DNA of 39,319 nucleotides from Candidatus Woesearchaeota archaeon. Lineage in GTDB: Archaea; Nanobdellota; Nanobdellia; Woesearchaeales; CAZJJJ01. The stretch is taken from NCBI GenBank assembly GCA_046538795.1, contig JBKHIF010000003.1:1-39319 (forward strand), written 5' to 3'. The notes under the pieces were generated by a model that searched no databases, was not told the origin of the DNA, and was given only the letters and a program-made list of their open reading frames with translations. The position numbers and the translations under genes are program-made. Within the stretch, counting starts at the first letter, position 1; each line of letters opens with the position of its first letter. Shown here one piece after another: positions 3,033 to 27,906 of this stretch.

Positions 3033-3044
3033 GATAATCCAAAC

Positions 3045-4607: not shown

Positions 4608-4890
4608 AAATCATTAAACAATATAAGAATTATATAAATCTTTTCATTTTTGAAATAAAATTCCAAAAAAGATAAAAAATTTCATTTTTGAGAATAAGCT
4701 CTAAAAACCAAAAATTAAACAATTTAGAAAAGAAATATAATCAACTATATATAATAATAAATTTGTAACCATTTTTGTGGTAATAATATGTCCCAAAAAA
4801 CAACACCAATAAAAAAACGCCTAAAATTCCAAAATTGTCCAAAATTAAGGTCTAATAAAAAACAAGTTAAAAAAAGAATAAAATCAAAAA

Positions 4891-4905
4891 CGAAACATTT
4901 ATATA
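4891..4905 (+). promoter_or_regulatory. BRE-TATA promoter of ftsZ
   Basis: CGAAACA-TTTATATA; same layout as the tRNA-Gln promoter at 27864-27878. Confidence 0.65.
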
Positions 4906-5058
4906 GTAGTTTGCTTCTAGAAATTGTAGTTTTGTCGATACAGGAGAGGGATTTCAGGGGTAATATTCTAACCCATTTATGAAAGATATTAGTGTCAACT
5001 CTCTTTAAAAAATAATGCCTAAAAAAGCCGATTGAGGATTAAAAGGGGGAAGCGAAAA

Positions 5059-6126
5059 ATGGATTTTGTGATGAATCAACAACAACAGACCACCAACCAA
5101 TTCGATAGCATTGAAGTGGGCCAAGCAAATATAAAAGTCATCGGAGTTGGCGGTGCAGGAAACAACATGGTCAACTGGCTCTATAAAAAAGGAATAAAGG
5201 GCGCTGAAATCATTGCTTGCAATACTGATCAACAACATCTCAATGTAATTGAATCTGACAGAAAATTTCTGATAGGACGTGATAATACTAAAGGACTTGG
5301 ATGCGGCGGTTATCCTGAAAGAGGCGCTGAAGCTGCTCAGGAAAGCATGCAGGAGATCAAAGAAGCTTTAAGGGGTTCTGACATGGTCTTTGTCTGCGGA
5401 GGCATGGGTGGAGGAACCGGAACCGGCGCATGTCCTGTTGTCGCTAATGTTGCCCGTGATGCAGGGGCTATCGTTATAGGAACAGTTACAATGCCTTTCA
5501 AGATAGAAAGAGCAAGAGTTGACAAGGCTGAATTCGGCCTGAAACAACTTAGACAGGTTTCTGATACAGTGATTGTAATTGATAACAACAGACTAGTAGA
5601 GATTGCAGGAAATTTGCCAGTGCAGCAGGCATTTGCTGTGGCAAACGAATTAATAAGTACTATGATTAAAGGAATTGTTGAGACGATCGCAGTGCCATCT
5701 TTGGTCAATCTCGACTTTGCCGACGTTAAAGCAATAATGACAAATGGCGGTGTAGCTGCTATAGGAGTCGGTGCCTCTGACACGAACAACAGGGTTGATG
5801 AAGCTGTAAAGGGTGCATTGAGCAATCCTTTGCTTGATATAAGCTACAGCGGAGCTACAGGAGCAATCATCCAGATCTCAGGCGGAAATGACCTTACCCT
5901 TGAAGAAATCAACAGGATAGGAGAACTTGTAACTGAATCAATGGATCAGGATGCAAATGTCATCTGGGGAGCAAGAGTCTCTGAAGAGATGAAAGGAAAG
6001 CTTACTGTAATGACGATCATAACAGGAGTTAAGTCACCTTGGATATTAGGCAAAATTGATTACAAAAAGCCTACAAGGGAAGCTGTTCAGATGAGTGACG
6101 AACTCGGAATAGAAATCGTCAGGTAA
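5059..6126 (+). CDS. ftsZ: Cell division protein FtsZ (archaeal FtsZ2 type)
   Basis: GGAGNN, GGMGGGTGTG, NLDFAD. PFKIERAR and C-terminal LGIEIVR are FtsZ2-like. ATG 5059 follows a GGGGGA SD (the track starts at TTG 5032). Confidence 0.98.
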   Translation: MDFVMNQQQQTTNQFDSIEVGQANIKVIGVGGAGNNMVNWLYKKGIKGAEIIACNTDQQHLNVIESDRKFLIGRDNTKGLGCGGYPERGAEAAQESMQEIKEALRGSDMVFVCGGMGGGTGTGACPVVANVARDAGAIVIGTVTMPFKIERARVDKAEFGLKQLRQVSDTVIVIDNNRLVEIAGNLPVQQAFAVANELISTMIKGIVETIAVPSLVNLDFADVKAIMTNGGVAAIGVGASDTNNRVDEAVKGALSNPLLDISYSGATGAIIQISGGNDLTLEEINRIGELVTESMDQDANVIWGARVSEEMKGKLTVMTIITGVKSPWILGKIDYKKPTREAVQMSDELGIEIVR

Positions 6127-6218
6127 ATATTTGGTTGGCAAGACCAAATTTCATATTTTTGTTTATTTCTTGCCTTCATTTATACCACCCCCGATGTTTA
6201 TATGAAGGCTATGTTTGG

Positions 6219-6251
6219 TCTTCACCACGTCATGTGGTGAAGATTTTTTTT
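6219..6251 (+). terminator. Stem-loop plus T-run after ftsZ
   Basis: TCTTCACCAC-gtcat-GTGGTGAAGA followed by T8. Confidence 0.7.
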
Positions 6252-6270
6252 ATTTTTTAAAAATTTTTAA

Positions 6271-6789
6271 TCAAATCTTTAAAATATAGTCTGCAAGATC
6301 ATCAATAGAATCTTGCTTTTCAGAAAGAGATTTTCTTAATTCTGTTGTAAGTTTAGTGAATCCCCCTTCTTTGTCAGGAACAAGTTTCCATCTGATGTTT
6401 GTCGAAGGAAATGAATTGTATTCTTCAACTACTGCATCAAGATATAAAAGATCCTTTTTCGGATCGTTTCCGACATAACCCATGTCAACATAAGGAGATT
6501 CGTTTATAACAACTCTTGAAAAAAATTCAAAGAAAGCTGGATTTCCAAAATGTATCAAAGCCTCGTAAGAGTCCATATCAGCAATCTCATAATCTCCTCT
6601 GAGGCGTGATATCTGCTCTCCTAAAGGATGTCCTTCACAAGAACCTTCAAGGTTATAACCTCTTGCCATCAAAGCTGCTACAAGAGGTTTTATTTTCTCA
6701 TCTATAGGCCTTCCTAACGAATCGCTGAATGAATCTATATCAAAGCCCCTTTTATCTTTCAGTTCTGTCTTATAATATTCAAGATCCAT
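6271..6789 (-). CDS. Hypothetical protein with ID..I..LV..L...G....SCEGH motif
   Basis: 172-aa ORF with ATG and upstream TTTTATAAA; the motif loosely resembles the N-terminus of Tyw3-like proteins. Confidence 0.7.
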   Translation of the reverse strand: MDLEYYKTELKDKRGFDIDSFSDSLGRPIDEKIKPLVAALMARGYNLEGSCEGHPLGEQISRLRGDYEIADMDSYEALIHFGNPAFFEFFSRVVINESPYVDMGYVGNDPKKDLLYLDAVVEEYNSFPSTNIRWKLVPDKEGGFTKLTTELRKSLSEKQDSIDDLADYILKI

Positions 6790-6896
6790 GCTAAAGGCGA
6801 ATGATAATTTATTTATAAAACCACCACACTTTTATCACTGAGAAGTTGTTTTAACATACAAAAGAGTATATATAACAAGAAAATATCCTGATTATT

Positions 6897-8453
6897 ATGA
6901 GAGACGTTTCAGTTGGGATTATAGCCCACAATGAAGAAAGCAATATCAGAAGACTTATTGATTCTGTTTTGGACCAGGAAACAACTAATTTTGCCCTTAA
7001 AGAAATCATAGTGGTGTCATCAGGTTCAACAGACAAGACTAATGAGATCGTATCTGGATCTGAAAATAAAGATTCTAGAGTCAGACTGGTAACTGAAACA
7101 CATAGACAGGGAAAATATTCTGCAATCAATATTTTTCTAAAAAATGCGCAGTCAGATATTCTTGTAATGATATCAGGCGATGTTGTTCCTAAAACTAATT
7201 CCATCGAAAAGCTGTGCATGCCTCTTCTGAAAAAAAAAGTGGGTCTTTCTGGAGGACATCCAATTCCGGTTGATTGTAAAGATAATTTTTTGGGATACTG
7301 TATATGGCTTGAGTGGAAGCTACATCATCTGATCTCTTTAGAAAATCCAAAGTTCGGCGAGATGATTGCTTTTAAAAAAGTATTTTCAGAGATCCCGCCA
7401 ACTTCTGTTGACGAGGAAGAGATCGCAAGGATCGTAAAGGAAAAAGGGCTAAAGGGAGTTTATGTTCCTTCTGCTATCGTCTACAACAGAGGTCCGGAAA
7501 ACTTATTGGACTTTATAGAACAAAGGAGAAGAATATATGCAGGGCACATTGCTTTGAGGAAAAAGGGATACATAGTTGCAACCACAGAGAAATTGTCCAT
7601 ATTGAAAAAAATAATGAATTTGCCGAATCAGAGATTTTTCTGGACCATAGGAGTTGTTTTTGTTGAATTATATTCTAGATTTTTAGGTTTAATTGATAAT
7701 TTTATCTTAAAAAAAGATCATTTTGTCTGGAAGATTCTTGCAAAAGACAAAGGTAAAAAAGCAGAATTCCAGGATATCATCATTATTATTCCGACTTTAA
7801 ATGAAGAAGAAAATATAGGAGAACTCATAAATCTGCTGACAGGCATGTATCCCGCAATCAAAATTCTTGTGGTTGACGATGATTCTAAAGATAAGACAAA
7901 AGAAATCGTTAAAGCTCACTCTTATAAAAACAAGAATATAAGACTGATGGTCAGGAAAAATTCAGATGTCAAAGGACTTACAGCAAGTCTTATTGACGGG
8001 ATAAAGGCAGTAAATACAATATATCTGATAGTTATGGATGGTGACCTTCAGCATCCTCCTGAAAAAATAGAAGAAATTAGAGGAGTTTTGGCTAACTGCG
8101 ATGTTGTTGTAGGTAAGAGAGATAAGGTTCTTAAATGGAGCTTTAAAAGAAGATTGATGTCTTTTGTTGCAAACTTACTTGCACACATCAGACTTTTCAA
8201 TAAAAAGAACAGATGTCATGACCTCATGTCAGGTTACTTTGGAGGAAAGACTGAATTATTCAAAACTATTGTCGATAATCATGAAGATGAATTCGTTAAA
8301 GAAGGTTATAAATTTCTTTTTGAATTTTTCAAGTTTAACAGGAAAAATTTGAAGATAAAAGAATTTTCTTATGATTTTGGTATGAGGATGAAGGGTAACT
8401 CAAAAATTGGGAAGAAGGAAATCAAGGCTTTTATCAGATCATTGTTTAGATGA
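6897..8453 (+). CDS. Tandem two-domain GT2 glycosyltransferase
   Basis: Domain 1: IIAHNEE, SSGSTDKT, ISGD, QRRRI. Domain 2: IPTLNEEENI, VDDDSKDKT, MDGDLQHPPE (dolichol-phosphate mannose synthase-like). Confidence 0.9.
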   Translation: MRDVSVGIIAHNEESNIRRLIDSVLDQETTNFALKEIIVVSSGSTDKTNEIVSGSENKDSRVRLVTETHRQGKYSAINIFLKNAQSDILVMISGDVVPKTNSIEKLCMPLLKKKVGLSGGHPIPVDCKDNFLGYCIWLEWKLHHLISLENPKFGEMIAFKKVFSEIPPTSVDEEEIARIVKEKGLKGVYVPSAIVYNRGPENLLDFIEQRRRIYAGHIALRKKGYIVATTEKLSILKKIMNLPNQRFFWTIGVVFVELYSRFLGLIDNFILKKDHFVWKILAKDKGKKAEFQDIIIIIPTLNEEENIGELINLLTGMYPAIKILVVDDDSKDKTKEIVKAHSYKNKNIRLMVRKNSDVKGLTASLIDGIKAVNTIYLIVMDGDLQHPPEKIEEIRGVLANCDVVVGKRDKVLKWSFKRRLMSFVANLLAHIRLFNKKNRCHDLMSGYFGGKTELFKTIVDNHEDEFVKEGYKFLFEFFKFNRKNLKIKEFSYDFGMRMKGNSKIGKKEIKAFIRSLFR

Positions 8454-9458
8454 AGATTGTTCCCATCTTTGACATAAATCACATACAGTCTGTTTTCCAA
8501 CACCAGTAACTTGTTTTTTACGTATATTAATCAATCCAGGACTATTCCATAATCTTTTAAATGACCTTTCATAAATGTTTCCTATATCTTTTGTCTTATT
8601 GGGTGAATAACAGCATACAGAAAAGCCACCATCAGAAAAAATCAATGCTTTAACCCACGGATATACACATCTATGTATTTTGAGATCATCTCTTTCTTCG
8701 AAAAATTTCAAATCCACGAGGTGTTTTTTTTTATGCCAACTAGACTTAAGAAAATCCAGCTGATCCACACCCAAATTACGAGCCAATTCTTTCATCTCGA
8801 ATATCTTATGTTTATTATGATTAAAGATCAGAAACTGAAGCTGAATTAGAGGATGGTTCACAGCTTTCTTGCGTTTCTTATCGACCAATTTTTCAATGTT
8901 TGAAATTACCAAGTCAAAATCACCACCTACACGATACCTTTTATATGTCTCCTGATCGGTCCCGTCAAGACCGATGATAAGATGATCAAGACCAGAATCA
9001 ATAATATTGTCAATTTCAGAATTTTCAATGTTTAAATTCGTAGAAACAGATACAAAAACATTATTTGTTCTCGCATAGCTAATCATCCTGTATATATCTT
9101 TGTTCAGGAAAGGTTCGCCCCAAATATAAAGATGAAGGATAAAGATATATTCCTTAAATTGATCAAATACCTTCTTAAAATCCACAAAAGACATATTTTG
9201 TCTTTTTCGTCCGAACGAGTTTCCTTGGCCAGTAGGACAAAATTTACAGTTCAGATTACAAAAATTGTTTGGATCAATTGTCAATGTATAAGGTCTTCCA
9301 CGAAGATCGGTCTTACCAATCAAGTATTCAAACGTCACCATAAAAAAATTCAGTAACTTCTTTATAGTCATAGTTCGAAAAAAAGCTAACAAATGTATAT
9401 TGGTGCTATCATTAAAAGCAATTCTTATAAACCTGTTAAGTCTTGTGAAATCAGTCAT
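8439..9458 (-). CDS. Radical SAM protein with SPASM/twitch domain
   Basis: CNLNCKFC, WGEPFL, CVYPW...DGGFSVCC...IGNI...CDLC. Confidence 0.93.
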   Translation of the reverse strand: MTDFTRLNRFIRIAFNDSTNIHLLAFFRTMTIKKLLNFFMVTFEYLIGKTDLRGRPYTLTIDPNNFCNLNCKFCPTGQGNSFGRKRQNMSFVDFKKVFDQFKEYIFILHLYIWGEPFLNKDIYRMISYARTNNVFVSVSTNLNIENSEIDNIIDSGLDHLIIGLDGTDQETYKRYRVGGDFDLVISNIEKLVDKKRKKAVNHPLIQLQFLIFNHNKHKIFEMKELARNLGVDQLDFLKSSWHKKKHLVDLKFFEERDDLKIHRCVYPWVKALIFSDGGFSVCCYSPNKTKDIGNIYERSFKRLWNSPGLINIRKKQVTGVGKQTVCDLCQRWEQSSSKQ

Positions 9459-9503
9459 GAAACTGGTCTAAATAATAGAATATTTAAAACCACCCTATAA
9501 ATT

Positions 9504-9656
9504 TTAATATACAATATAGAACGGAAAATTGAAAAAGTAAAAATCGTACCTATCAATTTTACTTATTCTATAACCTCACTTTGCGATTCAAGATGCAAAA
9601 CATGCAATGTATAGAGGAAAACCACTCAAGAAGAATTGTCAGGTGCAGAATGAATC
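9504..9656 (+). pseudogene. 5' fragment of a radical SAM gene, homolog of 18092-19150, ending at the IS end
   Basis: Manual translation LIYNIERKIEKVKIVPINFTYSITSLCDSRCKTCNV*RKTTQEELSGAE* aligns with ILYNISRKINKALTYPINYTYSVTRTCDSRCLTCSIWKSKDKKELSTSEW. Both stops (TAG 9612, TGA 9651) fall on Trp positions. Confidence 0.88.
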
Positions 9657-10586
9657 TGTTATCCCGAAACCACTTTACACTTTAAGTTCATCCCATAGTT
9701 GTCTAGGTGTTTTATTTCCTAAACTTATATGCAGTCTTTCATTGTTGTAATATTTCATGTAGTCTGCAACAGAAAAGAATGTTTCCTGTAAGAATTCAGT
9801 CTTATATGTCTCAAAGAATCTTTCGACTTTTTCGTTCGTTTGTGGTCGATTTACGCATGCAAGCACATGCTTGATTCCTAAATGATTTAGCACATTTCTG
9901 AACGCAGTATTTTGGTGCTGGTTATCACATCTGTTTGTATAATATTGTGATCCATGATCTGTCATTATCGCTTTCGGCTTGCCGAAAGCTGCAATGGCCT
10001 CTTTTAGGAGAGCAATGCTATTTTCAGCAGTTGATCTGCTGAAAATTCCGTAACTGGTTATAACTCTTGTTCTGTCGTCTAAGTATACACTCAGATTTTT
10101 ACCAGAAAAAGGGTCATAACTCCAATCTGTGTGCCAAATATCATTTGGATTTAGAAGCTCATATCTGACCCATTTTCTGGGTTTCTGCGTTTTGATATTA
10201 GGTCTGACAAGGCCGTACTTATTCAAGACCTTTTCAATCTGCCTGTGGCTAATTGAAAATCCTTTATTCCGTAATATGTTCTCAATCCGACAGACCCCGC
10301 ACTTGTATCTCCTTCTTAGATCTATAATTATAACTTCACTATTCGTATTGAGGCTAGTCTCTGGACGACCGGTTTTATGGTCTTTTAGACTATCCCAAAC
10401 TTGTTCATTATAAGTTTTTACAAGATTTGAAATAGTCATACGACTAATATTTTGAGACATAGCCGTTCTTGATGTGGAATTTCCTTTGAGATGTTGTTTG
10501 ACGATCCAAATGCGTTTCTTAAAACTGAGTTTGTACATAACATCACCCAAATAGGAAATGTCATGTAAAGTAAAAAAGTGATAGCA
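9657..10586 (-). mobile_element. IS481-family insertion sequence (about 930 bp)
   Basis: Imperfect 23-bp terminal inverted repeats TGTTATCCCGAAACCACTTTACA / TGCTATCACTTTTTTACTTTACA (15/23) bracket the transposase; no target duplication seen. Confidence 0.75.
9675..10550 (-). CDS. IS481-family DDE transposase (possibly decaying)
   Basis: N-terminal HTH; WHTDWS, YLDDRTR, MTDHGSQY, PQTNEKVERFF, YYNNERLHISLG. NEK replaces the usual NGK and RLH the usual RPH. Confidence 0.9.
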   Translation of the reverse strand: MGDVMYKLSFKKRIWIVKQHLKGNSTSRTAMSQNISRMTISNLVKTYNEQVWDSLKDHKTGRPETSLNTNSEVIIIDLRRRYKCGVCRIENILRNKGFSISHRQIEKVLNKYGLVRPNIKTQKPRKWVRYELLNPNDIWHTDWSYDPFSGKNLSVYLDDRTRVITSYGIFSRSTAENSIALLKEAIAAFGKPKAIMTDHGSQYYTNRCDNQHQNTAFRNVLNHLGIKHVLACVNRPQTNEKVERFFETYKTEFLQETFFSVADYMKYYNNERLHISLGNKTPRQLWDELKV

Positions 10587-10619
10587 CTTAAGAAATAAAG
10601 AAAATCACTGCTCAAGCAT

Positions 10620-10836
10620 ATTAGGAATTTAAAAAATTCCTAATCACTTAAACTGAAACTCTTAGATATTCCCACCCTAAAGGATGGGGTATTAAAGCTT
10701 TCACCAAAGACGTGATGTTCTAATTTCAAAATTCACCTTGCTCAAAGAGTACCCCAATAGGGAAAAGGCGAGGTGCCCTAACGGAGTACACCTGCGGTGC
10801 ATTGCTACAGAGGAGTACCCTTTCAGGGCAAACCCT
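10620..10836. repeat. Cluster of palindromes (REP-like and IS200/IS605-end-like)
   Basis: ATTAGGAATTT-aaa-AAATTCCTAAT (10620-10644); TCCCACCCTAAAGGATGGGG (10670-10689); three GAGTA+hairpin units at 10747, 10784, 10813. Confidence 0.55.
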
Positions 10837-10857
10837 AAATTTAGAAATAAACTAAAA

Positions 10858-12291
10858 TCATTTCCAAAATTGTATTTTTTCTGAAATTTTACCTCGGGTA
10901 CATATAGTATTTCCTGAGATTCTATTTTTGTCGTGGGCAAAATTGCTGGCGATACATCCAGGATGTTTATTGCAAGTTTTTATAAAGATGCATGATTTGC
11001 AGGGTTCATCAAGATTAGCAAAATAAGAATTATATTCTTTAGAATTCCAGATATCAAGAATGCTTTTTTCAAAAACATTTCCAAGCTTAAAATCTCTAGG
11101 AGAAAAAATGCAGGGATAAACATCGCCATTATAATCGATATTAAGAGAATGTTTTGCTGCACATTCTGTTTCTGTAAACATATTGCCTATCTGTATGTTA
11201 AATTTTGAAAACAATTTTACGAAACCATATGATGCAATAGTAAACAGTTTTTGAAGAATTGATGTTTCATACTCTTTTGAAATATCAGGTTTATCGTAAA
11301 AATTTCTTATTCCTGTAAATTTTCTGAATTTGAAAAAATTGAGCTTATGTCTGCTAAATTTCAAGAAGGTATTCAATGCATCAAAAGATTGTTGTTTTGT
11401 AAAGGTATATGAGATATTAACCCTTAGACCATTTCGATTGCATTCATCTATTATTTTTATTAAGTTTGAAGAACTTTTTTCACCTCTCATTTCTGTCTGG
11501 CCAAAATCATAACCGCAAACACCAAAATAAAGATCTATATTTTCATCTGCCAAAAAATCAATATACTCAATTATTTTGGGATGACCATTAGTCAAAATAT
11601 CAACTTCCAACCCTTTAGACTTAGCAAATTTAATATAATCAATAATGTTTGGATCGCTAAATGGTTCTCCACCTGATATGGTCACTATTTTTGTATTTGA
11701 CTTAGCAATCTTATCAATTATTTCCTTAACCTTATTTTTATCAGGTTTTATACTGCTATGTCTTATTTTTTTATCTATAATGCATAATTTGCAATCAAGA
11801 TTACAATTATATGTGATATCTAAAGTCATATTTGAAAGATAGAATCTTTTTGGTTCAGAACCAAGCATATATTTTTTTTTTATTTGCCTGTCCCAATCCA
11901 TAAAATGTCTATGCTTAGGAATAGCTTTATCAAAAATCAGCTTAACCCTAGGTTTTGAATTGTATTTTAGATCAGGATAATATTTTTCATAATCATCACC
12001 AACACCTTTTTCATCGACGATTTTTATAAGAGGACTTATAGAATCAAGAAACTTTAGATAATCATTAAAAGAAAGTAGTATTTCTTTTCTTCTTAAAGAA
12101 CCATGATTTTCTTTCAATGTTTTTTTTTCGTCAAGTATAAGCCAAAGAAAAAATGCAGATTCATTAAGTTCAAGAATCTTTATTTTATTAGCACGATAAC
12201 CACACCTAATATAAAATCGGTAATTAAACCCATAAGTAATCCAGTTTATATTTTTACCTCTTTTGACATATTTATAATCATTTATAATCAT
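10858..12291 (-). CDS. Radical SAM/SPASM protein with N-terminal PqqD/RRE-like domain
   Basis: ELNESAFFLWLILDEKKTLKE (PqqD-like), CNLDCKLC, SGGEPF, full SPASM C...GDVYPC...CKSCIFIKTC...GC...C. Confidence 0.88.
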   Translation of the reverse strand: MIINDYKYVKRGKNINWITYGFNYRFYIRCGYRANKIKILELNESAFFLWLILDEKKTLKENHGSLRRKEILLSFNDYLKFLDSISPLIKIVDEKGVGDDYEKYYPDLKYNSKPRVKLIFDKAIPKHRHFMDWDRQIKKKYMLGSEPKRFYLSNMTLDITYNCNLDCKLCIIDKKIRHSSIKPDKNKVKEIIDKIAKSNTKIVTISGGEPFSDPNIIDYIKFAKSKGLEVDILTNGHPKIIEYIDFLADENIDLYFGVCGYDFGQTEMRGEKSSSNLIKIIDECNRNGLRVNISYTFTKQQSFDALNTFLKFSRHKLNFFKFRKFTGIRNFYDKPDISKEYETSILQKLFTIASYGFVKLFSKFNIQIGNMFTETECAAKHSLNIDYNGDVYPCIFSPRDFKLGNVFEKSILDIWNSKEYNSYFANLDEPCKSCIFIKTCNKHPGCIASNFAHDKNRISGNTICTRGKISEKIQFWK

Positions 12292-12336
12292 CAGAAAATA
12301 AGAGGTAATAGAATCTTATTTAAATTTAAGTTTTTA

Positions 12337-13359
12337 TCAAATTATGATCGATAAGGGAAATATTATTATAAGAAACAGAATTATTGCCTGAAACATATAA
12401 TCTGCAAAAATATATATTTTTTCTGCTAATTGTTTATTGTTCTGAAATATTGCAAATAAAAATATCCTGAATATTTTTCTCCCATCTGTTTTTTTTATGG
12501 GCAAAAAATTTAAAAGACCAACCAAAAAATTAAATAAAATCGTCCAAAGCAAAATATCAAGTAATATTTGTAAACCTGAATTATAGGAAAAACCAACCAA
12601 TTTTTGAAAAAATGAAAAACCAGCATAATTTTTACTAATTAATCCTGCCTGCGATAAATGCAAAAATGTCACTTTTTGCTGTGTTTCAACAACAAAATTA
12701 AGATCAAAAACAAAAATAGAAATCAAAATAAGAATTAAAGCAGACATAATATTTGATAATGCTCCTGATGCAAAAATAGATATCTTCTTAGAATTCGATA
12801 ATTTTCCAAAATTATCCAGATCTGCATCAACAAACCCAAAGGGAAAAAAAGGCAAAAGCAAACAGTTGATACCAAAACACATATCATAAACTTTTACATC
12901 ATAGACCCTAAACATCATATAATGAACAAACTCGTGAATTATTACTGCAATAAAAAAACCAAATATCCAGAATGGATACGGAGAATAAATTGTTCCTTTT
13001 AATACAAAAGGCATTATTGGTACAAAATAGTTGGGAATTTTAAGACCTAAAAGTATGCTTATAAATAACATCAGAACCAAAAAAGAACTGATAAAGAGAC
13101 CAAAAAAACCAAAAAAGGAAATATAAGGGTTTAATTTTTTTAATAGCTTGATTACAGAACAAGGCACTACAGATTTATTTTTAAATTTATAATATATCGT
13201 GAAAATAAAGGGAATTTTAGTTAGATGAACAGAATAATTTCCATGTGAATTTAACAGAAAAATCAGACTGATTAAAAGAACAAATATGATAAAGACATAA
13301 ATAATTAAATTCATAACAAAAAGAAATATTTGATCACTTCTTAATCTTTGCCATCTCAT
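12337..13359 (-). CDS. M50 (site-2 protease family) membrane zinc peptidase
   Basis: HEFVH (HExxH), SGALSN, NFLPIKKTDG (NxxPxxxxDG), many hydrophobic segments; alternative start 13314. Confidence 0.9.
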   Translation of the reverse strand: MRWQRLRSDQIFLFVMNLIIYVFIIFVLLISLIFLLNSHGNYSVHLTKIPFIFTIYYKFKNKSVVPCSVIKLLKKLNPYISFFGFFGLFISSFLVLMLFISILLGLKIPNYFVPIMPFVLKGTIYSPYPFWIFGFFIAVIIHEFVHYMMFRVYDVKVYDMCFGINCLLLPFFPFGFVDADLDNFGKLSNSKKISIFASGALSNIMSALILILISIFVFDLNFVVETQQKVTFLHLSQAGLISKNYAGFSFFQKLVGFSYNSGLQILLDILLWTILFNFLVGLLNFLPIKKTDGRKIFRIFLFAIFQNNKQLAEKIYIFADYMFQAIILFLIIIFPLSIII

Positions 13360-13383
13360 TTAAAAAATAAATGACCATTCTGC

Positions 13384-13458
13384 TTAAGTTGTTATGTCTT
13401 GATGTCCATATAATCTTATTTTCCTTATTTTTTTTCTTTTCACTTCTTGCTTTTCCAT
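13384..13458 (-). CDS. Unannotated 24-aa small ORF, candidate RiPP precursor MEKQEVKRKKIRKIRLYGHQDITT
   Basis: ATG to TAA read manually; TATA box 23-32 nt upstream; co-oriented directly ahead of the M50 and RRE-radical SAM genes. Confidence 0.55.
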   Translation of the reverse strand: MEKQEVKRKKIRKIRLYGHQDITT

Positions 13459-13480
13459 AAAAAAGATAAATATCAGATCA

Positions 13481-13490
13481 TTATATAAAA
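13481..13490 (-). promoter_or_regulatory. TATA box for the small ORF / M50 / radical SAM unit
   Basis: TTTTATATAA on the minus strand at the spacing expected for a leaderless transcript starting at ATG 13458. Confidence 0.55.
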
Positions 13491-13550
13491 GTTACTATTT
13501 TAAGAAAATTGAGGAAAAACATTATAATCATTACTATTAACCATAAAAAC

Positions 13551-14087
13551 ATGAAAATCAGAAATATGGTTGTTTATTTTGTTAGGACTGCAGATAAATT
13601 ATTTTCTTATTTTCAATCTTCCAAAACAATCAGAAGAATTCTCTCAAGATGCATAAATAAAGATATTAAATATAGTGATGTGAGCAAATATGATTTTGAT
13701 GCTTTCAGGGACCTTATTAGATTTTCTAGTTTAAAAAAACACAACAAAAAATTTCACAAAAAACTTTTCAAATCATTAGGCGATAATAAATATCTTATCG
13801 TGGCCAAAAAATCAGGTTTCATATATGGTTGTGTAATTATAAAAAAAATCGATAAAAGATCATGGTTTTTAAGCGATCTTACTGTGCGAGGAAGATTTCG
13901 CGGCGCAGGAATAGGAACTTTACTTGTACAAAAAGCTATAAATATTGCCAGAAAAAATAATGCTAAAGAGGTTGTGCTTAAAGTAAATCAGAAAAATAAT
14001 AAAGCAATTGCATTATATTATAAGATGGGATTTAAAACATCCATTAAAATTGATGACGAGATGATTAAACTTGTTCTGAAACTATAA
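13551..14087 (+). CDS. GNAT (RimI-like) acetyltransferase
   Basis: RFRGAGIGTLL acetyl-CoA motif, NNKAIALYYKMGF; ATG 13551 preferred over TTG 13509. Confidence 0.88.
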   Translation: MKIRNMVVYFVRTADKLFSYFQSSKTIRRILSRCINKDIKYSDVSKYDFDAFRDLIRFSSLKKHNKKFHKKLFKSLGDNKYLIVAKKSGFIYGCVIIKKIDKRSWFLSDLTVRGRFRGAGIGTLLVQKAINIARKNNAKEVVLKVNQKNNKAIALYYKMGFKTSIKIDDEMIKLVLKL

Positions 14088-14117
14088 TTTATATATTACC
14101 GACCATTTTTGCATAAC

Positions 14118-15338
14118 ATGAAAAATATGGTATTAAAAAATGCATTTTATCTTTCAGGCTCTGAATTCTTAAGCAAAGCGTTTTTCTTTATATCACTTTA
14201 TTTCATGGCAAGGGCATATGGCCCAGAAGGAATTGGAAAATACTCATTTGCATTTACTTATGGAAGTATTTTTATGATTTTTGCCAATTGGGGACTCAAC
14301 AATCTCATTATAAGAGAATTAAATGATATCAAAGACAGATCGAGATATCTTGGAAATATCTTTTCTCTAAAACTTATTTTTGGTCTGCTATTTATGGGCA
14401 CATCTGTTTTGCTCGCCTTGATTATTCTTGAAAAAGATATGTTTATTCTCATACTGTTTACTGCCGCAATTCTTTTAACAGACAATCTGACTTCAATCTT
14501 CTACTCCATATTTAGATATCAAGAAAATATGCTTCCTGAAGCCACCATAAAGATTTTTCACAACATCCTGATAGTTAGCCTATCATTATATAACATTTTA
14601 TCTGGCAATGAACTTATTTACATATTTATTTCTTTTTTCATTGGAAAATTATTTGCATTTTTTGTTTCTTTTTTAATTTTTTCTCTAAAATCAAGAATGT
14701 TCATTCCTGAATTAAATAAACAAATAATCAAAAAAATCCTAATAAAAGGATTACCTTTGATGCTAATATCTTTATCAGGACTTATTATCTATAGAGTAGA
14801 TATACTCATGCTAAAATTTCTTAAAGGATATGAGATTGTAGGTTTATATGAAGCAGCGTACAATATAATAAGAAACATAGATTCATTAATGCTCTTTTTC
14901 AGTGTTTCATTCTATTCAAGATTATGCAAGATAAAAGATATAAAAAAATCATTTGTTTTTTTAAAAAAATCATTTATGCAATATTTTGTTTTCATATTAT
15001 TTTTCATCCTTGGAATATTACTATTTGGAAACAAAATAATCCTGTTTATATATGGACCTGATTTTTTAATTTCTGTAAAAATACTTTATCTTATTTCCTT
15101 TGGAGCTATATTTTTATTCTTAAATAAACTTAATATTCATTTTATAAATTCCATAAATAAACCGTGGATAAATGTATTGCTTATATTAGCGGGAGCCATA
15201 TTAAATATAATTCTTAATTTGTTATTGATTCCTTCATTAGGATGGATGGGTGCCGCAATTTCATCAATAACCAGTTATATGTTAATCTTTGGTGTATATG
15301 TTAAAATTATATTTTCACAATCATATAAGAAGTCATAA
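14118..15338 (+). CDS. Wzx/MOP-family oligosaccharide flippase
   Basis: ARAYGPEGIGKYSFA, YRVDILML, VGLYEAAY, LNLLLIPSLGWMGAAISS; highly hydrophobic. Confidence 0.9.
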   Translation: MKNMVLKNAFYLSGSEFLSKAFFFISLYFMARAYGPEGIGKYSFAFTYGSIFMIFANWGLNNLIIRELNDIKDRSRYLGNIFSLKLIFGLLFMGTSVLLALIILEKDMFILILFTAAILLTDNLTSIFYSIFRYQENMLPEATIKIFHNILIVSLSLYNILSGNELIYIFISFFIGKLFAFFVSFLIFSLKSRMFIPELNKQIIKKILIKGLPLMLISLSGLIIYRVDILMLKFLKGYEIVGLYEAAYNIIRNIDSLMLFFSVSFYSRLCKIKDIKKSFVFLKKSFMQYFVFILFFILGILLFGNKIILFIYGPDFLISVKILYLISFGAIFLFLNKLNIHFINSINKPWINVLLILAGAILNIILNLLLIPSLGWMGAAISSITSYMLIFGVYVKIIFSQSYKKS

Positions 15339-16334
15339 TTTTTGCTTAGAAACCAGTCTAGTGGGAATTTTTTTTCTATTGCAAAGAGGATCTGTCTTAT
15401 CATATTTTCGAAACTTCCTATATGTGTGTGTCTTGCAGCCCCCGTGGCAAAGATATCTATAACTGCAATTAAGACATTCTTTAGGTATTTTCATCCATTC
15501 ATCCCTGAGATCAACATATTTATCCCAAATTTTCTTTAAAGATAAAGAATTTATGTTTCCAACAGACTGCTCTTTTTCTGACATCGGACAGGGAACAGCA
15601 GATCCATCAGACAATATATAAATAGCATCAACATAACAAGAACATTCGCTTCCCTTTATCATAGATCTTAATAAAAATCCATTTCCATGCTTTTTATCAT
15701 GTGAAATTTGATTCAATGTTTGGTTGTATTCTTCAGGACTAATTTCATAAGATTTGTCAATTTCTGAACCAGAAGACATATATCTTTCAAAAGATACAGG
15801 AATATTAAGTTTTTTGACCTTACTGATAATCTCACCAATCTTATTATAATTTTTCTTTGAAATAAATATATGCAAAGAAATATTAAAAGAAGACAATTTT
15901 TTAATCTTATCTATCAGAATTTCATATGATCCTTTTCCTGAAATTGATTCGAGATTTTCTTTGCTATCAAATTTGATCCTAAGTTCAATTTGTTTTAGTT
16001 TTGCAAGAAAAGCTATCATTTCATCATCTATCAAGAAAGCATTTGTGTATATTATCGGATGCATGTTATTTTTGGAACAATATTTTAAGTAACTTATAAG
16101 CTCAGGATCACAAAAAGGTTCTCCACCCAAAAAAATAATGTTTTTTACACCCATTCTTTTAGATTGGCGAAGTACTGAAAACCAATCAACATCATCACCC
16201 GGGATATTTTTTGAATAACAAAAATCACAAGAAAGGTTACATTTACTTGTAGTGTGAATTCCAACTGATCTTGGGTTTCTTTGGATAAGATAATATGTTT
16301 TCTGAAATATTTTTGTAAAAAAAGTACCAATCAT
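15333..16334 (-). CDS. Radical SAM/SPASM protein
   Basis: CNLSCDFC, LGGEPF, DGSAVPC, CLNCSYRYLCHGGC...DPLC. Confidence 0.93.
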   Translation of the reverse strand: MIGTFFTKIFQKTYYLIQRNPRSVGIHTTSKCNLSCDFCYSKNIPGDDVDWFSVLRQSKRMGVKNIIFLGGEPFCDPELISYLKYCSKNNMHPIIYTNAFLIDDEMIAFLAKLKQIELRIKFDSKENLESISGKGSYEILIDKIKKLSSFNISLHIFISKKNYNKIGEIISKVKKLNIPVSFERYMSSGSEIDKSYEISPEEYNQTLNQISHDKKHGNGFLLRSMIKGSECSCYVDAIYILSDGSAVPCPMSEKEQSVGNINSLSLKKIWDKYVDLRDEWMKIPKECLNCSYRYLCHGGCKTHTYRKFRKYDKTDPLCNRKKIPTRLVSKQKL

Positions 16335-17020
16335 CTCTTTTCACCAACTATAAAATATCCAAATGAAAAAAATTCAGGAAATAATCTATTTATCCTGAAA
16401 AAATTAATTATCTTATATACTGCCACATAAAAAAAATTTTTTTTGTGTCTTGAAATCTTTGAAGGATAATAACGATTAATAACTTTCAAACGATATCTGT
16501 ATTTTGAAAATAATTTTTTTATTTTTTTAAAAGTCACAACATGGAGATGATCTGAAAATATCTTTTTTGTAAGGTGATTCATGTCTGTTATATCAAGAGA
16601 ATTACCAAACAAATAATAAAATCTGTTGATGATATTAAGGCTGTTTGGAACTGTTATAAAAATAAGATCTCCTTTTCTTTGTTTTTTTGAGATCTGATTT
16701 AACATAATTTCAGGATCAACAAGATGTTCCAGAATATCAAACATGAAAATCGCATCATACCTATTAAGAGGTTTTAAAGCAATTTCATCATTAAGATTTA
16801 CACAAATGGTCTTATAACCCTGATTATTTGCAATCTTAATTAAAGCAGGATCATTGTCAAGAACTGTTATATCTTCTGCATCAATCATTTGCAATATTTT
16901 TTCAGAAAAACCTAAATCCAAAACACTTTTGTTTCTTAATGAAAACATTTTGATTATTTTCCTTTTGAACAAAAAGTAATCTGATGTATCCTCATACCTA
17001 TTTTTTTCTTGCATTGTCAA
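16331..17020 (-). CDS. Class I SAM-dependent methyltransferase
   Basis: VLDLG (degenerate glycine loop), YDAIFMFDILEHLVDP, ITVPN. Confidence 0.8.
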   Translation of the reverse strand: MTMQEKNRYEDTSDYFLFKRKIIKMFSLRNKSVLDLGFSEKILQMIDAEDITVLDNDPALIKIANNQGYKTICVNLNDEIALKPLNRYDAIFMFDILEHLVDPEIMLNQISKKQRKGDLIFITVPNSLNIINRFYYLFGNSLDITDMNHLTKKIFSDHLHVVTFKKIKKLFSKYRYRLKVINRYYPSKISRHKKNFFYVAVYKIINFFRINRLFPEFFSFGYFIVGEKR

Positions 17021-18095
17021 CAGCCGCCCTTAATATTCCAAACCCACAATGACTATAGTTTGGATTGAACTCTCCTGAACACAGAGGATCTTTTCTGTTA
17101 GTATCTTTGAAAATATTATAGGTATATACAGTGCATCCTCCATGGCATTTTCCTGAATTCAGACATCCCAAACATTCATCGGGAGTACATTTCAATCGCT
17201 TTCTTAGTTCTTTTGATGATCTCCATATATTTCTAAGAGAATCATTAAAAATATTCCCATAACTAAGATCATCGTGTGCTTCAGGACATGACTTTACACA
17301 CCCATCCTGCATAACTGTTATGTTGTTGTAAAGAGCAGAACATACACCACCATTAACTTCACTATAAAAATCAATAAAATCAGTAAAACCTTTCTGTTCC
17401 CAATATAAAAACAGTTTACGTAAAAAACCGTTCCACTTATCAACATCTAATGCAAACAATTTGTTGACATCCTTGTCTTTTACAAGATGATATCTTTCAA
17501 ATGCAGGAATCATTCCTTTTTCATCACATAATTCAAATATCTCATCAATATTATCGACATTTTTTTTTGTGACAACAGTAAATGACATCATTCTAAATCC
17601 CGCTCTTTTAACAAGATCGATTTTTTCCAGAAGATCATCATAACTCATATCTGGAACATTTTGAAACTCATAATTTGCTCTTGTATCTGTTTTTATGACT
17701 ATTATCGTGTTTTTTTTATTTAATTTATTTAATAGTGCTTTTGTTAGAAAACTTCCATTTGTAAATATGCTTGTTTGAATCTTTAGAGAATCAGTTAATC
17801 TAATCAGATCAAAAAATCTTGGATACAAAAGAGGTTCTCCTCCCAATATATCAATATTTCCAACACCAAGTTTTTTTGCCTCTCTTATCACAGAAGATAA
17901 TTTTTTGAAATCAATACAATCATTTTTTCTTGAAACATAACAATATCTGCATTTAAAATTACACTCATAATTTGGATGTATCATCATAGTGTAAGGTCTG
18001 TCATAATTCTGCTTTAAAAAGGATAATAACCAGGATCTTACTCCAAGCATTCTGTGAATTTTATATAACCACCTTAAAAAATTATATTTATTCAT
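16998..18095 (-). CDS. Radical SAM/SPASM protein (paralog of 15333-16334)
   Basis: CNFKCRYC, LGGEPL, DGCVKSC, CLGCLNSGKCHGGC...DPLC. Confidence 0.93.
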   Translation of the reverse strand: MNKYNFLRWLYKIHRMLGVRSWLLSFLKQNYDRPYTMMIHPNYECNFKCRYCYVSRKNDCIDFKKLSSVIREAKKLGVGNIDILGGEPLLYPRFFDLIRLTDSLKIQTSIFTNGSFLTKALLNKLNKKNTIIVIKTDTRANYEFQNVPDMSYDDLLEKIDLVKRAGFRMMSFTVVTKKNVDNIDEIFELCDEKGMIPAFERYHLVKDKDVNKLFALDVDKWNGFLRKLFLYWEQKGFTDFIDFYSEVNGGVCSALYNNITVMQDGCVKSCPEAHDDLSYGNIFNDSLRNIWRSSKELRKRLKCTPDECLGCLNSGKCHGGCTVYTYNIFKDTNRKDPLCSGEFNPNYSHCGFGILRAAVDNARKK

Positions 18096-19150
18096 CTTAA
18101 TCCCAACTCACACAGGTAATTTGTATAATATGGATTGCTATGTGTACAAAAACATTTTCTTTTCTTGATATTTTTTCGTATCTTATCAGCTTTTGTTCCA
18201 AAAAAAATTTCGTTAAATGATTTATTAAGCAAGTTACCCATTGATTTTGTATTGTTTGGACAATCCCAAAGTTGTCCTTCTGAAGATATTTCTACAGAAG
18301 AATAACCAGCATAGCAAGGGATAATCTCTTTTTGATATTTTATAGCACGGATTACATATTTATAATATTTCTGCCTCAAATAATTTTTAAAAACAATCAC
18401 AGGAGATACTTTTTTTGCATCACCAGTGCGAGATATTTTTTTCATCACCCACAAAGAATCACTTTTGCTGATTGAAAATCCATCATGGGAGTTATCATAT
18501 TCATTTCGAATTTCTGCAAGCTCAAAACCAAAATGAACAGGTTTTATATCGTGTTTGATAAGATGGATTATTTTTTCGATTTTTTTTACATTATATCTTG
18601 ATATGGTAGTATATGTTCCAATCACAAGATTAGGAAATTGTTTCTGCAGTTGTTTAAGCAAAGCGATTGTTTTCAGAGTTTTTTCAAAAACTCCTTTTTT
18701 TCCTCTTATATGATTGTGAGTTTTTTTAGTTCCATCAAGTGATATATTAAGAATGAGTTTGGTTTTGCCAAGAATAACGAGAATTTTTTTTACTTTTGTT
18801 TCTATTATCTTGGGTATTGTTGCACTAACAGGCATATTTATTATTGCAGGATCATTATATTTCTTTATATAGCTAAAAATCTTTACAAGATCGTTTCTTA
18901 AAAATTGATTTCCTCCGGTTATTGTTATCCAGAATGGTTTTTTTCCAATATCTAATATTATTTTTTTCCATTCAGAAGTTGAAAGTTCCTTTTTATCCTT
19001 GCTTTTCCATATACTGCAGGTCAGGCATCTTGAGTCGCATGTTCTTGTGACAGAATACGTGTAATTTATAGGATATGTTAATGCTTTATTGATCTTTCTT
19101 GAAATATTATACAAAATAAACCTAAATGGAAGAAATACATAATTTTTCAT
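18092..19150 (-). CDS. Radical SAM protein with SPASM/twitch domain
   Basis: CDSRCLTC, TGGNQF (variant of GGEP), CYAG...EGQLWDC...CFC. Confidence 0.92.
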   Translation of the reverse strand: MKNYVFLPFRFILYNISRKINKALTYPINYTYSVTRTCDSRCLTCSIWKSKDKKELSTSEWKKIILDIGKKPFWITITGGNQFLRNDLVKIFSYIKKYNDPAIINMPVSATIPKIIETKVKKILVILGKTKLILNISLDGTKKTHNHIRGKKGVFEKTLKTIALLKQLQKQFPNLVIGTYTTISRYNVKKIEKIIHLIKHDIKPVHFGFELAEIRNEYDNSHDGFSISKSDSLWVMKKISRTGDAKKVSPVIVFKNYLRQKYYKYVIRAIKYQKEIIPCYAGYSSVEISSEGQLWDCPNNTKSMGNLLNKSFNEIFFGTKADKIRKNIKKRKCFCTHSNPYYTNYLCELGLR

Positions 19151-20022
19151 CGTAAATTTTTCATCTCCTTAAAATAATGTTTACTTTTTGATATATCATA
19201 TGTTCTTGTTTGCGTCAATAAATCCACACCATCAAGACTTATTATAGGTCTTATATTTAACAATCTGCAAAAATTCTGGTATAAGAATACAAATGCTCGC
19301 ATAAATTTTTCAGGTATTTTGATTCTGTTTATCTGAACATTATTTTGTTTTGCAATCATCTTGTAATAATCTTTAAACAGTATCTTTTTTCCTGCTATGA
19401 TAAATATTTCATCAGTAAATTTTTGCGCTTTAACCATTACTTCTGCAAGAATTTGCACATCAATTGGTTGTATGATATTATTTCCTTTGCCAATAATAAA
19501 AAACCAACCTTTTTTCATGGCCTCATGCAAAGATCTAAGATTTCGGTTGTATCTCCCAATAACAAGTCCTGACCTTATAATCACATAATTTCCGTAACTT
19601 TGCACAAGAAGTTCAGATTCTAATTTTGTCTTCTCATATATGTTTATAGGATTAAACTTGCTATTTTCATTAAAATTGTTACCAGGACCATGAACACCAG
19701 TAGTACTCAAAAAAATGATCTTTTGGTTATTTTTGCATTGTTCAATTACTTTTTTTGTAAGAAAATAATTGCTTTTCCAATAAACACTTTCATCCAGATT
19801 GAATTCATGAAGTTGTCCTGCAAGATGATATATAATTCTACATTTGGATAAATTTGATAAATCATAGGTCAATACAATACCTTGCTTTTTCAGAAAATCA
19901 CGATCTTTTTTTTTTGATTTTTTTCTTACAAGACAGAAAATTTTCAACCTTTTATTCTGAGAGAGAACTTTTACAAGATTCTTACCGATAAAACCAGTCG
20001 CACCAGTTATAAACACATTCAT
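19147..20022 (-). CDS. NAD-dependent epimerase/dehydratase (extended SDR)
   Basis: MNVFITGATGFIG, YHLAG, YEKTK (YxxxK); ATG 20022 preferred over the track start 20079. Confidence 0.92.
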   Translation of the reverse strand: MNVFITGATGFIGKNLVKVLSQNKRLKIFCLVRKKSKKKDRDFLKKQGIVLTYDLSNLSKCRIIYHLAGQLHEFNLDESVYWKSNYFLTKKVIEQCKNNQKIIFLSTTGVHGPGNNFNENSKFNPINIYEKTKLESELLVQSYGNYVIIRSGLVIGRYNRNLRSLHEAMKKGWFFIIGKGNNIIQPIDVQILAEVMVKAQKFTDEIFIIAGKKILFKDYYKMIAKQNNVQINRIKIPEKFMRAFVFLYQNFCRLLNIRPIISLDGVDLLTQTRTYDISKSKHYFKEMKNLR

Positions 20023-20181
20023 ATTAAACCAGTTTTCGGTTAAAATAGAAAGTATAAATAAATTTCGTAAAAAGATCAAAATGTAAATTCACGCAACATT
20101 TAATAAAAATAGTCTAATGAGAATACACTTATAATCTTATATTACAATAAATTTTATAAATTTGAAAGCTTGCTAAAAATC

Positions 20182-21717
20182 ATGCTTGAAAGTTTTCATC
20201 AATTCCTCATAAATTATAATTTCTATATACTCTTAGGTCATCTTATATTAATTATTACATTATCAGCAATTAATTCCAAATACATAATAAAACTTTTTAG
20301 TCAGATCAAAAAAAAAACATGGATCATTCTTTCTATCATCCTCATAATTTTCTTTACAACAATGGTGGTATTCAACCACTCTCCATATTGGTCTAATGAA
20401 CCACAATGGTGGCACATGATCAATGCGAAATCATTTGCACAATATCAAAGAGCATATCATATCAATGAACCTCATGGACATGCGTTCCTTTTATCACTAG
20501 GTTACTTTATCGGTGGCATAAACAATACAACAACCTATGTTGTCAATTCAATTATAGCCACTATGACTGTGTTCGTTATTTTTCTTCTGACATACACCTT
20601 ATTCAAAAATCAATCCATTGCTCTTATATCCGCATTATTCATGGGAATAATGCCAAGACACATCTTTTTTTCTGGCACAGGAGAAAATGAGGTCTCATCA
20701 ATATTTTTTGTAATGCTTTTTTTGCTTTTTACATTTATCGTTTTTTCAGAAAGAAAAAAGAACCTATATATTTTATCATTGATAACTCTTGCTTATGCCA
20801 TGCAGATACGTATAGAAAACAGCGTATTTATTCTGATATTCATGGGATTAGGAATATTTGATATATATAACTCTACAAAACGAAAAGATATTGTTAAAAA
20901 ATTAGGAATCAGTCTTCTTATTTTTATAATAATTATATCCCCTCTTTCATACTGGATACTCAACTATGGCGCTACAAGGTTCATGATCTGGAACGTCCTT
21001 AAAATCGAATCTTTCAAGCCAGATCCAATTAAAGGAAAAGAAGAACACTATCCAGAATATTATAAAAATGTGCTTTCAGGAAACATCAAAAATTTCTCAT
21101 CATGGTTTTTTAAGCCTTCTGTTCATAATCCATTTATATTAGCATTATTTTTCTTATCTTTCTTATTCATAAAAGAATACAAAATAGAAATGATAATTCT
21201 TTATTCATTGATCGCAATCTATGCATTAATATATATACTATACTATACTGGTTATTTTTTCAGATATATAGTTTATTTCAACGCACCCATAGCAATCATA
21301 TCTGCATTTTCTCTTGTAAAGCTAACAAGACTTATCAAATCAAAATTTCAAAAACATTTTCTTGCAACTTTGCTAGGAATCATATTAGTAAGTTCAGGAG
21401 TTTTTGGCTATGACATGCTTAAAAACCATCCGATTGATACCCAGGAATGGTTTGAAATTGATTATATAACTTTTTCCAACGAAGATTATGTTACATGTAT
21501 GAAGTATGCGTCATTATTTCAATATGGTAAATGGCCTAGATTAACAGAGAACAAAACACAATATTTCATATATACTGACCATGAAAATAATCATCCTGAA
21601 TGTCCTTTCTACAGAAAAGATATCAACAAGTCATTTGATATGAAGGTTATAGAAGAAAAAGAAACCATAATCCTTTACGAAATAACACCAAAAAATCTTA
21701 CATCCGTGGTCTCTTGA
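20182..21717 (+). CDS. GT-C fold membrane glycosyltransferase (ArnT/PMT_2-like)
   Basis: Many hydrophobic segments, NEP after the early TM helices, IRIEN and FRY motifs, soluble C-terminal tail. Confidence 0.7.
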   Translation: MLESFHQFLINYNFYILLGHLILIITLSAINSKYIIKLFSQIKKKTWIILSIILIIFFTTMVVFNHSPYWSNEPQWWHMINAKSFAQYQRAYHINEPHGHAFLLSLGYFIGGINNTTTYVVNSIIATMTVFVIFLLTYTLFKNQSIALISALFMGIMPRHIFFSGTGENEVSSIFFVMLFLLFTFIVFSERKKNLYILSLITLAYAMQIRIENSVFILIFMGLGIFDIYNSTKRKDIVKKLGISLLIFIIIISPLSYWILNYGATRFMIWNVLKIESFKPDPIKGKEEHYPEYYKNVLSGNIKNFSSWFFKPSVHNPFILALFFLSFLFIKEYKIEMIILYSLIAIYALIYILYYTGYFFRYIVYFNAPIAIISAFSLVKLTRLIKSKFQKHFLATLLGIILVSSGVFGYDMLKNHPIDTQEWFEIDYITFSNEDYVTCMKYASLFQYGKWPRLTENKTQYFIYTDHENNHPECPFYRKDINKSFDMKVIEEKETIILYEITPKNLTSVVS

Positions 21718-27878: not shown

Positions 27879-27906
27879 GCAAATAGGATTTTTCAGGTTC
27901 ATCTTT

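Follow-up and report, generated by a model that had tools for sequence, protein, structure and literature searches.

Organisation of the cassette

On the minus strand of contig JBKHIF010000003.1 from a Candidatus Woesearchaeota archaeon (assembly GCA_046538795.1; the whole stretch of 39,319 nucleotides that was analysed is called the window here), three co-oriented genes follow each other closely: an open reading frame (ORF) of only 24 amino acids, a membrane protease of the M50 type and a radical S-adenosylmethionine (rSAM) enzyme with a SPASM domain. The genes are separated by gaps of 24 and 45 bp, and their coordinates bear out this arrangement as it had been described in the initial annotation, which was made from the DNA letters and a list of their ORFs. 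We consider it plausible that they represent a small cassette for the maturation of a ribosomally synthesised and post-translationally modified peptide (RiPP) in a Woesearchaeota-like member of the DPANN archaea.

The radical SAM/SPASM enzyme

The enzyme (477 amino acids, positions 10858-12291, minus strand) shows clear Pfam matches to Radical_SAM (PF04055, E 2.2e-14, 54.4 bits against a cut-off of 29.5) and SPASM (PF13186, E 1.7e-14, 54.3 bits against 21.5), the latter domain being recognised by TIGR04085 as well (43.7 bits against 27). Its cluster motif CX3CX2C is intact at C163/C167/C170 and the corresponding columns are invariant across 19 aligned sequences. Seven SPASM cysteines (C377, C394, C431, C434, C440, C446 and C464) are present, as for two auxiliary clusters. 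Their spacing CX2CX5CX5C is two residues longer than in protein P0002, the single full-length homologue among 5.8 billion proteins (27% identity, 100% coverage, E 2e-32, or 2e-33 in the pairwise comparison).

A full-length AlphaFold2 (AF2) model was calculated from a 19-row alignment, in which the core is well modelled. Using this model as query for Foldseek, structures of SuiB (E 1.2e-13), SkfB (1e-12), CteB (7e-12) and PqqE (2e-11) rank first, followed by BlsE, TigE, MoaA, anSME and EpeE (E 9e-9, rank 23 or lower), and DesII is also found below the peptide maturases. For the modelled fold this ranking favours a peptide maturase while leaving room for other types of rSAM enzymes. A sequence search of the PDB with the full protein returned matches only to rSAM cores, and the NCBIfam models for RiPP maturases scored far under their cut-offs (PqqE 49 against 381 bits, PapB 45 against 340).

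A probable PqqD-like domain at the N-terminus

Residue 159 marks the beginning of the Radical_SAM domain in this enzyme, against residues 28, 63, 44 and 32 in the other four rSAM/SPASM proteins of the window, so that the long N-terminal extension of about 150 amino acids, which contains LNESAFFLWLILDEKKTLKE, is real and, as had been noticed from the letters, peculiar to this one of the five. Its first ~95 residues (positions 12007-12291, minus strand) were proposed to form a RiPP recognition element (RRE), a PqqD-like winged helix that would bind a leader peptide. The Pfam model PqqD aligns residues 38-61 with profile positions 11-34 (E 0.1, 13.4 bits against a cut-off of 23.4), and when all six frames of the genome are scanned with this model at E up to 1, the same residues are its sole match (E 0.083). 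The homologue P0002 passes the PqqD cut-off with its residues 46-108 (25.4 against 23.4 bits), a segment collinear with residues ~33-90 of our protein. We also used a custom PqqD-like profile that was built without the query, nine of the 13 sequences in the alignment that corresponds to it matching PF05402. In a one-sequence search it recognises the query with E 2.3e-4, or E 2.9e-3 when P0002 is left out, and it aligns NKIKILELNESAFFLWLILDEKKTLKE with the canonical helix-1 motif. Structural neighbours of an ESM-Atlas model of residues 1-120, which by the method's own caveats are leads only, are PqqD-family clusters and the N-termini of other rSAM/SPASM proteins (TM-score 0.60-0.68); one of the clusters matching the N-terminal fold has PF02163, the family of the M50 protease, in 47% of its members.

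Several results weigh against an RRE at this position. When the query is searched alone, its N-terminus matches none of the Pfam families at E up to 0.01, and phmmer with residues 1-150 finds only the protein itself among 1.84 billion representatives. A profile made from the N-termini of the query and P0002 retrieves nothing from the PDB sequences up to E 10, and hhalign against the PqqD-like profile returns a probability of only 9%. The pLDDT values (local distance difference test, as predicted) of the N-terminus are only 24-45 in the full-length AF2 model, and a separate model of residues 1-115 from a 13-row RRE alignment reaches a mean pLDDT of 51 and a predicted template modelling score of 0.34, Foldseek finding no match better than E 4.2 for this low-confidence model. 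Its predicted strands (residues 16-20 and 23-27), bridge residues (31 and 35) and helices (44-53, 75-88 and 97-104) are compatible with a winged helix without being evidence for one. Taken together, P0002, the sole PqqD signal of the genome and the Atlas neighbours point indirectly to an RRE, and the direct tests on this protein all stayed below threshold or failed. We regard the N-terminus as likely to be an RRE.

The M50 protease

The middle gene (positions 12337-13359, minus strand) encodes a peptidase of the M50 or site-2-protease type with 340 amino acids (PF02163, E 1.1e-15, 58 bits against a cut-off of 27.2). Both motifs are intact (HEFVH, residue 142; NFLPIKKTDG, residue 284), in agreement with the M50 peptidase beside an rSAM/SPASM enzyme that had been read from the letters. 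The hydrophobic windows of the protein overlap and merge into about six stretches, and the protein begins directly with a membrane segment. It is one of five M50 loci in the genome. The next-best relative shares 30% identity with it over 36% of its length and, judged from searches of collections of 5.8 billion and 1.84 billion proteins, both the protease and the rSAM enzyme are near-orphans. M50 proteases have a documented part in RiPP maturation, where EpeP serves the epipeptide and TglG and TmoG the pearlin pathways (PMC10885120, available part).

Promoters and the 24-residue ORF

The small ORF (positions 13384-13458, minus strand) starts with ATG, encodes MEKQEVKRKKIRKIRLYGHQDITT and ends with TAA. 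It is preceded by the TATA box TTTTATATAA (positions 13481-13490, minus strand), in which TTTATATA starts at -31 from the ATG. This position can be compared with the rest of the genome, where TATA-like 8-mers peak sharply at -32 to -29 from the ATG (148 against a background of ~12, in 637 starts of long ORFs), so leaderless mRNAs seem to dominate in this organism. An A-rich stretch at -37 to -33 resembling a TFB-recognition element (BRE) and a faint enrichment of G at -12 to -6 complete the promoter signature, which helps to locate true starts and small genes.

The initial annotation had assumed a single TATA box for all three genes. A separate TATA-like box, TTTAAATA (positions 12317-12324, minus strand), precedes the ATG of the rSAM gene; it lies inside the 45-bp gap and starts at -33, where the TATA motifs of the genome peak. 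Strict co-transcription of the three genes is therefore not established, a point that counts against a simple operon. For the ATG of the M50 gene we found no TATA motif at -33 to -28 and no obvious ribosome-binding site, and the simplest explanation is therefore that the protease is expressed from the transcript of the small ORF. A T-rich tract, TTTATTTTTT (positions 13362-13371, minus strand), between the small ORF and the M50 ATG could be an archaeal oligo-T attenuator. As far as such signals can be read from the sequence, it is plausible that both enzyme genes are expressed.

Is the small ORF a gene? A TATA 8-mer starting at -33 to -28 is found upstream of 36 of 1215 intergenic ATGs (3.0%) and of 73 of 371 gene starts (20%), the latter being crudely called. 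A small ORF of 20 amino acids or more with its TATA box at this distance is present in only ten of 371 intergenic regions, and the 24-residue ORF is one of these cases. Its position relative to the TATA box is thus unusual and matches the leaderless start position of the genome. Several of the other TATA-positioned small intergenic ORFs look like genuine small proteins. One of them, on contig C55, encodes 58 amino acids with a C-terminal membrane anchor (MAKENIRMPSSGGG...) and presumably resembles Sec61-beta, which suggests that the TATA-position filter finds real small genes.

Other observations are less favourable to a precursor gene. ORFs of this length arise by chance in 6.5-7% of 20,000 shuffles of the 149-nt spacer (sense ATG, at least 24 amino acids), and a sense ATG ORF of at least 24 amino acids occurs in 109 of the 371 intergenic regions of 100-400 bp in the genome (29%), so the mere existence of the small ORF is not beyond chance. 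Its richness in Lys and Arg is expected from any reading of an A-rich spacer, the TATA box would be required anyway for driving the M50 gene, and the peptide has neither a paralogue in the genome nor a match in Pfam or NCBIfam. All in all we lean slightly towards translation of the ORF.

Two other explanations for this region were rejected. A structured RNA leader would be expected to fold better than shuffled sequence, yet the 111-nt region holding the ORF shows no such signal (z +0.47) and has no match in Rfam. The ORF shares its frame with the M50 ATG, from which two TAA and seven sense codons separate it (13360-13458), and might be taken for an N-terminal part of the protease reached by read-through; the two intervening TAA stand against this and no sign of an altered code was seen. 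We take the shared frame as a coincidence with a chance of one in three.

Homologous loci

Close relatives of the cassette were not found. In 185,579 species genomes 14 loci were identified, none of them closer than 32% identity over a segment, and for residues 1-127 of the rSAM enzyme a search of 40 related genomes yielded no match. Metagenome contigs contributed at least 61 loci, and among the matches listed, which do not include the 2114-bp contig of P0002, there was no close homologous locus. Contigs from a second metagenome study are identical to the window over 10594-11289 and 11355-13700. As they show no difference, a signal of selection on the cassette cannot be read from them.

The pairing of the two enzymes recurs elsewhere. 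In an M50 search of the ORFs of all 88 loci, an rSAM/SPASM protein and an M50-like protease stand side by side in three: our own, L028 (positions 313-3285 of a metagenome contig) and L011 (positions 4622-8307, from an Elusimicrobia metagenome-assembled genome (MAG)). Both of the latter encode an rSAM/SPASM protein together with a membrane HExxH peptidase, and their Pfam scores for M50 and PqqD lie just under the cut-offs. The peptidase carries a PqqD-like N-terminus in L028 according to the profile and in L011 as seen by eye; the profile also detects a PqqD-like N-terminus on the rSAM protein of L028 and gave no match for that of L011. Downstream of the L028 pair a C13 peptidase with dockerin is encoded. 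In L011 a Cys-rich ORF of 69 amino acids, located upstream and two genes away, is the best candidate for a precursor. The recurrence in these two unrelated loci supports the pairing of an rSAM/SPASM enzyme with an M50-type protease.

Host genome and surrounding island

The genome, which occurs in a microbial mat, comprises 1.34 Mb in 97 contigs and is 97.6% complete. The best named homologues of the DNA ligase encoded in the window come from Nanoarchaeota/Woesearchaeota MAGs (62% identity), which agrees with the DPANN-like host proposed from the letters.

The cassette is part of a low-GC tract (positions 6897-21717, 25-29% GC), the GC content of which it shares. From its Pfam content, with a double glycosyltransferase of family 2 (GT2), five rSAM/SPASM proteins, a GNAT acetyltransferase, a Polysacc_synt flippase, a methyltransferase, an NAD epimerase and PMT_2, the tract can be interpreted as a surface-glycan island. 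Its remaining four rSAM/SPASM genes, which encode RRE-less enzymes, are located at positions 8439-9458, 15333-16334, 16998-18095 and 18092-19150.

Divergent from the cassette, the GNAT gene (positions 13509-14087, plus strand; PF00583, E 3.4e-17) has an ATG at 13551 with ATTATAAT at -30. Against NCBIfam the protein shows generic matches only, every one of them under the cut-off, and the flippase gene begins 21 bp 3' of it. A role in tailoring of the product or in immunity, as initially suggested, finds no support here; the GNAT more probably belongs to the glycan island and its membership in the cassette is doubtful.

At the other end the cassette is bounded by a dispersed, hairpin-rich repeat of ~270 bp (positions 10586-10864) that abuts the stop codon of the rSAM gene. 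Copies of it were found by blastn on many contigs, often at contig ends, and internally deleted variants exist; the summed contig depth is 50-110, compared with ~11 in the flanks. The repeat folds better than shuffled sequence (z = -3.39, none of 200 shuffles folding equally well), a search of Rfam gave no match, and it looks like a miniature inverted-repeat transposable element or a repetitive extragenic palindromic element. Beyond the repeat, downstream of the rSAM gene, a gene for an rve-family transposase follows (positions 9675-10550, minus strand; helix-turn-helix and integrase core in Pfam), which is present as a single copy in the assembly, unlike the multicopy repeat next to it. The surroundings of the transposase gene showed no terminal inverted repeats of 14 nt or more.

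Elsewhere in the window, two tRNA genes (positions 27906-27998 and 32581-32674) are 93-94 nt long, one of them with an unassigned anticodon, and are probably intron-containing archaeal tRNAs.

Proposed pathway and alternative explanations

A pathway that would combine these elements can be drawn as follows. A leaderless transcript would start at the ATG of the 24-residue ORF, giving a peptide with a basic leader (MEKQEVKRKKIRKIR) and the Cys-free C-terminal core LYGHQDITT. The leader would be bound by the N-terminus of the rSAM/SPASM enzyme, folded as a PqqD-like winged helix, and the rSAM core, supported by the two auxiliary SPASM clusters, would abstract a hydrogen atom from the peptide core. 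As the latter is free of cysteine, no thioether would be formed, and the modification would consist in a C-C or C-O crosslink or in the epimerisation of a residue. Finally the membrane M50 protease, translated from the same transcript, would cut off the leader and may release the product.

Not all parts of this pathway are equally well founded. The order of the genes, the intact catalytic motifs of the two enzymes and the geometry of the promoter are established, whereas the RRE fold, translation of the ORF, its role as substrate and the chemistry are inferred. That the rSAM enzyme and the M50 protease act together on a peptide or protein is, in our opinion, probable. The assignment of the 24-residue ORF as the substrate of this pair is tentative and rather doubtful at present. 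The most specific version, namely a Cys-free 24-residue peptide as first cistron of a leaderless mRNA, a non-thioether modification installed within LYGHQDITT by an orphan RRE-rSAM/SPASM enzyme and maturation by a dedicated M50 protease, seems unlikely. The observations of the initial annotation were thus largely right and its interpretation was reasonable and is partly supported, with RRE and precursor unproven.

The ORF might instead have a different function within a real maturation pair. It could be a leaderless upstream ORF, whose translation delivers ribosomes to the start of M50, 24 nt further downstream, or it could have arisen by chance within a leader of 99 nt. The true substrate would then be encoded elsewhere or be a larger protein, as CrpA is for CrpC. 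All evidence concerning the enzymes applies equally to this explanation, ORFs of such length are common by chance, and the M50 ATG, with neither TATA nor obvious ribosome-binding site, would fit such a coupling. Moreover, the best precursor candidate of L011 is two genes away and not adjacent, and an archaeal RS-SPASM enzyme with a predicted RRE has been reported to modify a large protein (PMC13692751, available part). However, no other candidate for a substrate gene is present in the few intergenic spaces of the island, and the exact TATA-to-ATG spacing, here with 24 open codons behind it, is seldom seen (10 of 371 intergenic regions). We consider this explanation rather unlikely.

The enzyme could also tailor a small molecule, a sugar or a lipid, for the glycan island. 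In this case the extension would not be an RRE, the M50 protease a mere neighbour and the ORF noise. The location of the rSAM gene is an argument in favour and at the same time counts against a peptide cassette: it lies at 25-29% GC amid GT2 glycosyltransferases, four other rSAM/SPASM genes, flippase, methyltransferase, epimerase and PMT_2, and its best relatives in the genome are the paralogues of the island with 24-25% identity. The NCBIfam scores far under the maturase cut-offs, the lack of significance in all direct RRE tests and the presence of five M50 loci in the genome point in the same direction. On the other hand, the other four rSAM/SPASM proteins have no extension and the only PqqD-like signal of the genome falls on the one that has it, its sole full-length homologue P0002 contains a PqqD domain that is significant in Pfam, Foldseek places peptide maturases above BlsE, DesII and MoaA, and pairs of rSAM and M50-like proteins recur in other loci. 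A tailoring enzyme is unlikely. That the pair is drifting or recently transferred cargo beside mobile DNA, currently without function, would agree with the near-orphan state of both proteins, the N-terminal region unmatched in 40 of 40 related genomes and the rve transposase and multicopy repeat at the rSAM stop codon, but is highly improbable as both frames are intact with every catalytic residue, their GC content equals that of the island and their expression signals are plausible.

If the peptide pathway proposed here is true, its product would be the first RiPP to be defined in an episymbiotic archaeon. The genomes of DPANN archaea are tiny and these organisms rely on other cells, and a dedicated pathway for peptide modification in such an organism would suggest a secreted or surface-located signal or a weapon, used against or with the host. 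As the cassette is embedded in a cell-surface glycan island, the peptide might act at the host-cell interface, and, both enzymes being orphans by sequence, the reaction might follow a new chemistry.

Comparison with known systems

Radical SAM/SPASM enzymes with an RRE and a leader protease are an established kind of maturation system, and M50 proteases are already known from the epipeptide and pearlin pathways. The locus epeXEP(AB)/yydFGHIJ of Bacillus subtilis has in common with our cassette a small peptide gene, a candidate in our case, an rSAM enzyme with additional Fe-S cluster(s) and an intramembrane protease of family M50, all within one co-oriented cluster. In contrast to it, the order here is peptide, M50 and rSAM, the candidate peptide has 24 amino acids, and EpeE structures are found only at rank 23 or lower in the Foldseek search, behind SuiB, SkfB, CteB and PqqE. 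No ABC transporter, represented by EpeAB in the known system, was found among the 27 ORFs of the window scanned with Pfam, and no epipeptide-specific family is among the best 25 NCBIfam matches. The locus resembles epe/yyd in the way it would work but does not belong to the epipeptide systems. Pearlin pathways are characterised by a peptide aminoacyl-tRNA ligase (PEARL) and a scaffold peptide; in contrast to the pathways of TglG and TmoG, a LanB-like or PEARL domain is absent among the scanned neighbours (Pfam, ORFs of the window). For the M50 protease of the Bacillus system it has been reported that EpeP is sufficient for producing the mature epipeptide (PMC10885120, available part).

Among archaea the closest case is CrpC of Methanococcus voltae, an RS-SPASM enzyme with a predicted RRE that was characterised in 2026 (PMC13692751, available part). 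The statement that no characterised example is known, made initially for a DPANN-like archaeon, would therefore be too strong for archaea overall. As proposed for our cassette, CrpC/CrpA combines an archaeal RS-SPASM enzyme with a predicted RRE and a ribosomal product encoded alongside, whereas CrpA is large and rich in Cys and acquires ranthionine crosslinks and the available part of the report describes no M50 protease for the three-gene Crp cluster (PMC13692751). Predicted rSAM RiPP clusters have already been counted across DPANN by genome mining, with 221 biosynthetic gene clusters (BGCs) in Nanoarchaeota (PMC12144867, available part). Our literature search found no paper on an RRE-rSAM plus M50 cassette in DPANN, and the supplementary BGC list of the mining study might already hold such clusters (PMC12144867).

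The cassettes of L028 and L011 also place an rSAM/SPASM protein with N-terminal extension beside a membrane HExxH peptidase of the M50/DUF3267 type. They differ in that their peptidase bears the PqqD-like domain while our M50 protease starts with a membrane segment, and their rSAM proteins are 24% identical to the query.

With SuiB, CteB, SkfB and the pair PqqE and PqqD, which include the best structural matches, the enzyme would share a PqqD-like domain, putative in our case, next to the rSAM core and the 7-Cys SPASM domain. The candidate precursor has a length that we take to be similar to that of PqqA. In contrast to the sacti- and ranthipeptides the candidate core contains no cysteine, and in contrast to the known RRE-dependent maturases the RRE is only marginally detectable and the NCBIfam family models score far under their cut-offs. 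With RRE and precursor as candidates, the locus fits the class of an RRE-rSAM/SPASM maturase combined with a leader protease.

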